Of a DNA stretch of 64,000 nt, positions 16,127 to 16,540 are shown piece after piece; position 1 is the stretch's first letter; every line of letters starts with the position of its first letter. The stretch is taken from the NCBI GenBank assembly GCA_001786955.1, contig MFUM01000004.1:4457-68456 (forward strand). Direction: 5' to 3'. A model generated the notes under the pieces. The model did no database searches, was not told the origin of the DNA, and saw only the letters and a program-made list of their open reading frames with translations. A program made the position numbers and the translations under genes. The stretch is from Candidatus Nomurabacteria bacterium RIFCSPHIGHO2_12_FULL_42_19 (GTDB lineage: Bacteria > Patescibacteriota > Minisyncoccia > Phycocordibacterales > UBA9973).

Positions 16127-16540
16127 TTATGGAAGAATATTATGTATTTTCTTAATTATCGTACCAAAGTCATTCTCTTTTATCATACCAATTTTTCTTG
16201 AAAGCCTTCTACTATCCAAAAGTCTTATCTGTGATAAAATACCGGCATAAGTCTTTCCACTGAACTCATATTGGTGATAATAGTTATTGTTTTTCTTGGA
16301 GCTTGTTAATGGTATCGCTAAAAATATACTGTTATTGAATTTTCTAATAATAAGGATAGGTCTTTCAAATAATTCATTTTTCCCATCTTCTTCATAACCT
16401 ATATTTTTACCAAGTGAACAAAACCATATTTCTCTTTCGTGGAAAAAGACATTAGATTTCTTGGTTGATAAACTTTTTTTTAATTTATTCCAATCGTCAT
16501 ATTCTTTTTCCATATTTTTATTATTCTTTTTTAGAAACAA
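16127..16540 (-). CDS. MazF/PemK-family endoribonuclease toxin-like protein, orphan (no adjacent antitoxin ORF)
   Basis: ERPILIIRKFNNSIFLAIPLTS aligns with MazF RPvlVv..d..N.....vv.P.Ts. ILSQIRLLDSRRL aligns with MazF ILxEQIRTIDKxRL. It overlaps the rpoC stop by 20 nt. Confidence 0.65.
   Translation of the reverse strand: MFLKKNNKNMEKEYDDWNKLKKSLSTKKSNVFFHEREIWFCSLGKNIGYEEDGKNELFERPILIIRKFNNSIFLAIPLTSSKKNNNYYHQYEFSGKTYAGILSQIRLLDSRRLSRKIGMIKENDFGTIIKKIHNILP

Follow-up and report, generated by a model that had tools for sequence, protein, structure and literature searches.

A MazF-fold toxin gene behind rpoC in a Candidatus Nomurabacteria genome, and a conserved convergent small RNA as its candidate antitoxin

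The minus strand of a 64-kb stretch of contig MFUM01000004.1 from Candidatus Nomurabacteria bacterium RIFCSPHIGHO2_12_FULL_42_19 (assembly GCA_001786955.1), which is one part of the genome and is referred to below as the window, carries in this order rpoB, rpoC, a gene for a protein of the MazF/PemK toxin family, a 176-nt gap, dnaG and rpoD (Table 1). The gap between the toxin gene and dnaG (15951-16126) is occupied by the gene and promoter of a predicted small RNA (sRNA) on the opposite strand, and by nothing else. An earlier note on this DNA had described the toxin gene as an orphan that overlaps the 3' end of rpoC, with an antitoxin that is elsewhere or tiny, or else as a MazF homolog domesticated in the RNA polymerase operon.

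Table 1. Features of the toxin locus and its immediate neighbours (positions in the window; ORF, open reading frame).
Feature	Position	Strand	Remarks
MazF/PemK-family toxin gene	16127..16513	-	128 aa plus stop; ATG 16513-16511, TAA 16129-16127
In-frame upstream extension to TTG 16540	16514..16540	-	source of the apparent 20-nt overlap with rpoC; probably untranslated
Weak promoter-like site TAGAGA-17-AATAAT	16520..16548	-	within the 3' end of rpoC; 6 nt before the toxin ATG; 9/12 matches
sRNA promoter	16045..16072	+	-35 TTGACA 16045-16050; 16-nt spacer; TG-extended -10 TATACT 16067-16072
Predicted sRNA, candidate RNA antitoxin	16078..16131	+	about 50-54 nt; start 16078-16079; ends predicted
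sRNA 5' single-stranded leader AGUAAAU	16078-16084	+	
sRNA hairpin P1 GGC-UUCG-GCC	16085-16094	+	
sRNA linker UCCGA	16095-16099	+	
sRNA P2 / terminator hairpin GAAACCCCC-GCAA-GGGGGUUUC	16100-16121	+	
sRNA U-tract GUCUUUUAUG	16122-16131	+	covers the toxin stop codon 16127-16129
51-aa TTG ORF in the gap	15957..16112	-	sRNA and promoter region read in frame; judged spurious
rpoC (RNA polymerase beta' subunit)	16521..20129	-	upstream, co-directional; translation contains NADFDGD
dnaG (primase)	14214..15950	-	downstream, co-directional; 71% identical to DnaG of locus L001 at the nucleotide level

The minus-strand ORF 16127..16540 (137 aa when read from its TTG) encodes the segments RPILIIRKFNN, IPLTS and ILSQIRLLDSRRL, and its reading as a MazF/PemK-like protein is borne out by profile and structure comparisons alike. 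Its sole Pfam match is to PemK_toxin (PF02452; E 3.6e-8, 34 bits over residues 36-135, the curated gathering score being 23.1 bits), a threshold that is also passed by the homologs on pVir and on a Nitratiruptor plasmid, and it matches the phage family PHROG 9567 ‘MazF-like growth inhibitor’ over nearly its full length (1.4e-19). A sequence search of the PDB returned chance matches to Mediator subunits only. An AlphaFold2 model built on 27 homologs (pLDDT, the predicted local distance difference test, 79.8) has a helix at its N terminus (residues 2-17), followed by a barrel of seven strands and a C-terminal helix, that is, the SH3-like beta-barrel with C-terminal helix of the MazF/Kid/CcdB fold. 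All of the top 50 Foldseek matches of this model in the PDB are MazF, Kid or MoxT (TM about 0.6-0.8), among them MazF of S. aureus, B. subtilis, M. tuberculosis and E. coli (E about 1e-6, probability 1.00).

Invariant residues in the alignment of 27 sequences include W8, K12, G39, E41, G44, R51, P68, Q95 and R103, and the family retains the motifs G39-x-E41-x-x-G44, R51-P52, P68-L-T70, Q95-I-R and R103; P52 is nearly invariant, and position 70 is Thr or Ser throughout. R51-P52 and T70 align with the catalytic Arg (R25 in B. subtilis, R29 in E. coli) and Thr (T48 and T52, respectively) of MazF, as judged against B. subtilis and E. coli reference sequences. The N-terminal helix with its invariant W8 and K12 precedes the MazF barrel and is specific to this family. 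From its sequence, the protein looks like a catalytically competent MazF-fold endoribonuclease toxin.

All close homologs are 128 aa long and begin MEKEYD, which places the start at ATG 16513 rather than at the TTG. The 20-nt overlap with rpoC reported earlier exists only for the TTG start; from the ATG, a 7-nt spacer separates the gene from the rpoC stop codon (16523-16521), as compared with 5 nt in relatives. Co-transcription with rpoBC on the same strand, as the earlier note had proposed, is probable given this short spacer and the absence of a minus-strand terminator-like site between rpoC and the toxin gene. The weak promoter-like site inside the rpoC end could in addition give rise to a leaderless toxin mRNA. 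At many other loci (e.g., L033, L043, L055, L058, L070 and L075) a -10-like box stands 5-9 nt before the toxin start and a Shine-Dalgarno sequence is not visible, which suggests leaderless or near-leaderless toxin mRNAs; the 26-nt 5' untranslated region (UTR) of the Campylobacter homolog pVir0047 (see below) is a counter-example.

The toxin gene is not an orphan, because a conserved small RNA partner lies immediately 3' of it on the opposite strand. The promoter of this RNA matches the consensus at 11 of 12 positions, carries an upstream TG and is the best such site in the interval 15800-16800, in which P2 with the U-tract is also the sole terminator-like site (plus strand). Tandem repeats are absent from the same interval, the RNA being a single unit. 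An identical antisense layout was found in 78 of 78 non-redundant homologous loci from several phyla, plasmids and one viral contig, and it persists where the proteins are only 28-46% identical (Nitratiruptor plasmid, Saprospiraceae, viral contig). Its elements follow one another as TTGAC(A), a 16-17-nt spacer, (TGn)TATACT/TATAAT, about 6 nt, a leader NACAAAU, P1, a short linker and P2; TTGAC and TAnAnT are invariant or nearly so across the 78 aligned loci. P1 is mostly GGC-UUCG-GCC, with pairing kept in the variants GCC/GGC, GGGG/CCC(A), GGAC/GUCC and GCUUCC/GGAAGC, and P2 varies from 4 to 13 bp with a GCAA or GAAA loop. The two-hairpin shape is recovered from nearly all sequences when they are folded singly. 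A search of Rfam gave nothing credible at the window element (E up to 10) and nothing in 12 loci representing all RNA classes.

In class B, the commonest of these RNA classes, a third hairpin lies over the last toxin codons (…KALLP*) with U-runs on both sides, forming a bidirectional terminator. Since it is placed at the stop codon, the body of the class B RNA is not complementary to the toxin mRNA. The shared terminator hairpin also puts the last ∼6 toxin codons of class B under a joint coding and RNA-structure constraint.

Covariation is strong in each of three independent analyses. A gapless alignment of 19 class B sequences is 100% paired, with double-sided changes in 6 of 10 pairs, and none of 500 shuffles reached the observed value; 71 covariance-model hits are 99.6% paired with compensatory changes in 9 of 10 pairs, as compared with 44-64% pairing in controls with slid partners; and an unconstrained analysis of the window's own class with MAFFT and RNAalifold found both helices, with compensatory changes in 9 of 11 pairs. 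The strand that encodes the RNA is fixed by its G.U pairs, by the identity of its loops and by the expression of the Campylobacter homolog: ∼17 cells that are G.U on the antisense strand would be A.C mismatches on the toxin strand (2 cells are unpaired), and the loops read as UUCG and as the GNRA type on the antisense strand only.

Linkage of RNA and toxin is near-obligate in both directions across phyla. When a covariance model derived from class B was run over 897 kb (the window and 81 loci), its hits lay directly downstream of toxin genes, on the other strand, and some of them stood next to second toxin copies. The hit at 16078-16119 (+) is the only credible one in the 64 kb of the window, a second row at 606-624 (E 0.23) matching only the P2 hairpin half of the model. 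In the reverse test, an exact 22-mer of the RNA was matched to metagenome contigs, yielding at least 120 loci; 102 of these were distinct, and for 85 the flanking DNA was long enough. Among the matches listed, a convergent MazF-like ORF was present in 81 of these 85, ending ∼61 nt from the motif, and the four exceptions retain promoter, RNA and terminator together with the last 10-20 toxin codons. No toxin copy without the RNA was found among the loci examined; RNA without toxin, and never the reverse, is the asymmetry predicted for an antitoxin-toxin pair. A degenerate 20-mer of the RNA gave five chance matches in viral contigs, with no toxin beside them. At one metagenome locus (L125, Ga0209542_10035642, motif at 3072-3093) a hicA/hicB-like pair stands in place of most of the MazF-like gene, as if one toxin module had been exchanged for another at this site.

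As for a protein antitoxin, no conserved small ORF lies upstream or downstream of the toxin gene in ∼80 loci, and a MazE, AbrB or ribbon-helix-helix (RHH) domain is absent from all 20 small ORFs of the 64-kb window. The small ORFs that flank the toxin gene cluster only through one DNA element, which is conserved in all three reading frames across loci and is therefore non-coding. The 51-aa TTG ORF in the gap was rejected as an antitoxin: it has no Pfam match, its frame is cut to 23-38 aa in relatives, and its conservation there is confined to the RNA element. In view of this frame, the statement of the earlier note that no antitoxin-sized ORF precedes or follows the gene is only roughly right. 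The MazE/RHH-like ORF that it proposed to look for is found neither in the gap nor in the window, and the adjacent candidate antitoxin is an RNA, so that its suggestion of a tiny antitoxin survives in spirit and that of one located elsewhere does not. A Cys-rich protein of 574-591 aa was likewise considered as a partner and rejected (adjacent in 7 loci only, multicopy, no Pfam match). On the Nitratiruptor plasmid (L090, 2955-3143), a 62-aa ORF past the sRNA promoter begins …KTIRVEDDLWDKFKK… and has the look of a ribbon-helix-helix protein, with no Pfam match; it may regulate plasmid functions instead of acting as an antitoxin.

A counterpart of the locus is found on plasmid pVir of Campylobacter jejuni 81-176. 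The protein CJJ81176_pVir0047 (134 aa) is 34% identical to the window toxin (BLASTP E 4e-23) and shares with it the N-terminal motif F-D-x-W-N-x-x-K-K. On the strand opposite pVir0047, between it and pVir0048, lies CJpv3, an RNA of 77 nt (31119->31043) that gave a Northern blot signal (Dugar et al. 2013, PMC3656092, Table S12). The step height at its transcription start site (TSS) is 16164, as compared with 28 for the primary TSS of pVir0047 at 30608 (PMC3656092, Table S5), and the 26-nt 5' UTR of the latter (PMC3656092) implies a coding sequence at 30634-31038. CJpv3 ends 4-5 nt after the toxin stop codon. Because the Northern probe sequence maps to the toxin-sense strand of pVir, it detects an RNA of the opposite strand. 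CJpv3 folds into three hairpins, of which the 3' two correspond to P1 and P2; it differs from the window RNA in its extra 5' hairpin and in having no -35 box. pVir0047 and CJpv3 thus resemble the window in combining a homologous toxin that bears the W/K helix with a convergent sRNA ending at the toxin stop. A validated type I pair on pVir of 81-176, cjrA (RNA) and cjpT (protein), is on record (Shen et al. 2016, Mol Microbiol 101:909, as cited in PMC7826846 and PMC10470494). It may be of the same kind as pVir0047/CJpv3, and cjpT may be pVir0047. The cjrA RNA has been described as 33 nt long and of type I.

At the level of the module, these observations are probably best explained by a compact mobile module in which a MazF toxin is paired with a structured RNA antitoxin of ∼50 nt that replaces the MazE protein. 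The toxin would be made by read-through from rpoBC, from the weak promoter of leaderless type, or from both, and would be kept harmless by a large excess of RNA. If synthesis of the RNA stopped, through loss of the locus, transcription shut-off or phage attack, the labile RNA would decay and the RNase would be set free.

As to how the RNA might act, we tentatively favor direct neutralization of the toxin protein, in the manner of a type III antitoxin or a decoy substrate. The universally conserved, single-stranded leader at the 5' end of the RNA, (U)ACAAAU (in the window, AGUAAAU), would be the active part, presented beside P1 and bound with help from the Trp/Lys helix at the N terminus of the toxin. 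Four considerations point in this direction. The leader has been kept across phyla in spite of divergent stems; the body of the class B RNA lies outside the toxin transcript; no other pairing site was found in the toxin mRNA; and the family has its N-terminal Trp/Lys helix, and type III toxins share the MazF/Kid fold (PMC5086642). Pairing of the RNA to the translation start or coding region of the toxin mRNA that would be cognate-specific or positionally conserved was not found, complementarity being confined to the 3'-terminal overlap. A fuller version, which we offer with greater reserve, is that a large, cross-phylum MazF subfamily may be neutralized by a convergently encoded RNA of two hairpins and one copy, which would bind the toxin directly and whose substrate-like 5' leader would serve as the decoy.

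Several points weigh against an RNA antitoxin of this kind. Searches of the toxin against NCBIfam and PADLOC gave no match. The class B covariance model scores the window copy at E 0.025 only, and the leader in the window's clade reads GUAAAU rather than ACAAAU. The toxin-strand hairpin of the window's class lacks a good U-tract, and the toxin transcript may there extend across the RNA gene and be complementary to the RNA over its whole length. The known type III antitoxins consist of repeats in tandem that precede the toxin gene, whereas here a single unit lies downstream. We infer toxicity, neutralization and the ends of the RNA in this organism. Finally, the strictly convergent layout with overlapping 3' ends is predicted by cis-antisense action of type I and is not required by protein binding.

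This last point belongs to the reading that survives best beside direct binding, in which the module is the same and the RNA is a type I-like cis-antisense RNA that would base-pair with the toxin mRNA at the shared terminator (3' end or 3' UTR), so that the mRNA is degraded or expression blocked, and would make no contact with the protein. We consider it possible but rather unlikely. The convergent arrangement that it predicts is universal in the family; complementarity, however, is automatic in overlapping genes, and leaves unexplained both the conservation of the leader and the maintained fold of P1 and P2. Class B has complementary terminator hairpins, which resemble those of par/Fst-RNAII and of B. 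subtilis type I pairs, but the body of its RNA lies beyond the terminator of the toxin mRNA. In the window's class and in pVir, which are without a clear toxin-strand terminator, the mRNA may span the whole RNA gene; no second pairing site was found in the toxin mRNA, and the toxin is a soluble RNase of 128 aa, not a small membrane peptide. The type I pair cjrA/cjpT reported on pVir of 81-176 (cited in PMC7826846 and PMC10470494) may be this very locus. Direct binding and antisense action could also operate together.

An improbable alternative is that the pair is not a toxin-antitoxin system at all, the MazF-like protein being a processing or partner enzyme of the RNA, or the RNA regulating other targets in trans. 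Linkage by itself is no proof of an antitoxin role, and the conserved unpaired leader is similar to motifs that MazF enzymes recognize, e.g., UACAU, which is named in the title of a paper. The remnants, with RNA left behind and never the toxin, nevertheless fit an addiction module; the full MazF catalytic set is retained, and the distribution is patchy and mobile, over plasmids, a viral contig, tandem copies and variable islands.

It is very improbable that the protein belongs to a classical type II MazF system with an antitoxin protein that was overlooked or whose gene lies in another part of the genome. NCBI and JGI label the homologs ‘type II toxin-antitoxin system PemK/MazF family toxin’, and the inspection covered 64 kb of the genome; against this stand the ∼80 loci with no conserved neighboring ORF, the window with no MazE, AbrB or RHH ORF, and a gene that travels with the RNA and not with any protein.

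The slightest chance of all attaches to a domesticated housekeeping RNase of the rpoBC operon, or an inactive relic: the order rpoB-rpoC-mazF is stable in one clade (9 loci) whose rpoC is only 78% identical at the DNA level, and the 7-nt spacer implies co-transcription, but there is no rpoC adjacency outside that clade, a 77.7%-identical gene with ∼50 nt of downstream sequence stands elsewhere in L006-8, the slot toward dnaG is a variable cargo site, and the ORF is intact over its whole length, catalytic residues included, and strongly conserved.

The candidate module can be set beside three kinds of known system. With type II MazEF and PemIK (Kis-Kid), the window toxin shares PF02452, the fold, and the catalytic Arg-Pro, Thr and Q-x-R motifs. 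It differs in having no MazE/PemI protein and no upstream antitoxin gene, its partner being a convergent small RNA, and in its extra N-terminal helix of ∼25 aa with invariant Trp and Lys. Type III systems (ToxIN, AbiQ-antiQ, CptIN and TenpIN) likewise combine a MazF/Kid-like endoribonuclease with a structured non-coding RNA (PMC5086642), and like the module described here they are mobile and associated with plasmids or phages. The window toxin, in contrast, is a true PF02452 protein and not a ToxN/AbiQ, CptN or TenpN, with no PADLOC match, and its RNA has a promoter of its own and forms one unit of two hairpins, which lies downstream in convergent orientation; the upstream sequence is rpoC coding sequence. 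Direct contact between RNA and protein is suggested here by the leader and the N-terminal extension alone.

Convergent type I systems (par Fst/RNAII of pAD1 and, in B. subtilis, TxpA/RatA and BsrG/SR4) also have an RNA on the opposite strand and a shared, often bidirectional terminator, and the promoter of the RNA is far stronger than that of the toxin, as here. SymE/SymR and RalR/RalA, type I systems with enzyme toxins, were compared with the module for their opposite-strand small RNA. A small hydrophobic peptide is typical of type I, if not universal, whereas the protein here is a soluble MazF-fold protein of 128 aa; a second complementary site like the direct repeats of par was not found; and the RNA is conserved in sequence and fold far beyond the needs of antisense pairing.

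The components, a MazF toxin and an RNA antitoxin, are known, and the combination of a PF02452 toxin with a single-copy, convergent, two-hairpin RNA is absent from Rfam and from annotation. The literature searched yielded no account of how widely the family is distributed or of its conserved RNA architecture, except possibly for the single Campylobacter case; the novelty would be smaller if the pair of Shen et al. 2016 is of this kind. MazF is a textbook type II toxin, and annotation pipelines label the whole subfamily type II without a partner. If the RNA is the antidote, many ‘solitary’ MazF genes would find an explanation, most of all in Patescibacteria with their small genomes, a new RNA family without an Rfam model would be added to those catalogued, and the boundary between types I, II and III could be tested with a cassette of ∼520 bp, a cultivable homolog being available on C. 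jejuni pVir. If direct binding holds, the module would constitute a distinct RNA-protein toxin-antitoxin class that is neither classical type I nor type III.

The toxin family is large, with at least 444 clusters at 50% identity (E <= 1e-30) and with members in at least 580 species-representative genomes, and it is concentrated in Patescibacteria. Homologs also reside on plasmids of Campylobacter, Helicobacter and Nitratiruptor, in Campylobacter prophages and on one viral contig. The closest relatives, with 84-90% protein identity, are in genomes of Candidatus Nomurabacteria/Paceibacterota and have rpoC directly upstream, the rpoC of the homologous locus carrying domains RNA_pol_Rpb1_1 to _5. 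Adjacency to rpoC is limited to this closest clade (L001-5, L009, L011 and L012). Neighbors were compared across 80 loci from a collection of species-representative genomes; outside the rpoC clade they are unrelated, with tandem toxin copies in some loci, and the upstream neighbor is co-directional with the toxin gene in 63 of 76.

The synteny comparison that the earlier note had called for thus speaks against its idea of domestication: gene and RNA occur in dozens of unrelated contexts, after PGK (L006), after the RNase P RNA gene (L053) and on plasmids, and with rpoC in one Nomurabacteria-like clade only. Adjacency to rpoC is a lineage-specific insertion into a variable slot, and a position behind rpoC is poor ground for a claim of domestication when the module is a mobile insertion. 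In L006-8, the 77.7%-identical gene and the ∼50 nt downstream of it lie between PGK and a gene for a Cys-rich protein; in L053, the RNase P RNA gene (5524-5979) directly precedes the toxin gene. These contexts and that of rpoC in the window hint at a tendency of the module to insert just behind genes that are highly expressed.

The slot between toxin gene and dnaG is a variable cargo site, spanning 15951-16126 in the window, 6463-7095 in L001, 1296-1850 in L011 and 6463-8238 in L012. It is empty in L009 and in the window, which is ∼630 bp shorter than L001 at this place. In L001-5 the slot holds a gene for a 210-aa protein resembling ART-PolyVal ADP-ribosyltransferases (Pfam, 37.1 bits vs 31.2), in L011 a gene of 184 aa whose function is not known, and in L012 the gene for a 591-aa Cys-rich protein. 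Phage T4 Alt ADP-ribosylates MazF (reviewed in PMC5086642), which makes the ADP-ribosyltransferase-like neighbor intriguing.

Tandem toxin duplicates are present in L023, L030, L035, L062 and L069; each copy has its own sRNA in L030 and L062, and L069 has a second sRNA copy. Dispersed copies (two or more) occur in several genomes, e.g., MFKT01 (L034 and L063) and CAYWCU01 (L027 and L083). The Cys-rich proteins form a family of 572-591 aa that is rich in CxxC zinc ribbons, has no Pfam match, adjoins the module in 7 loci and is present in several copies per genome (L006 6464-8188; L010, L012, L013, L071 and L084, with two copies in L071 and in L084); it may be a mobile-element or defense protein of Patescibacteria.

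Elsewhere in the window there are four tRNA genes, at 62475-62563 (-), 62801-62890 (+), 44452-44538 (+) and 9659-9732 (+). Three of them are tRNA-Ser genes, and one was called with the unusual anticodon ACT. A gene for a small stand-alone GIY-YIG protein (62152-62391, minus strand) adjoins the tRNA-Ser cluster.

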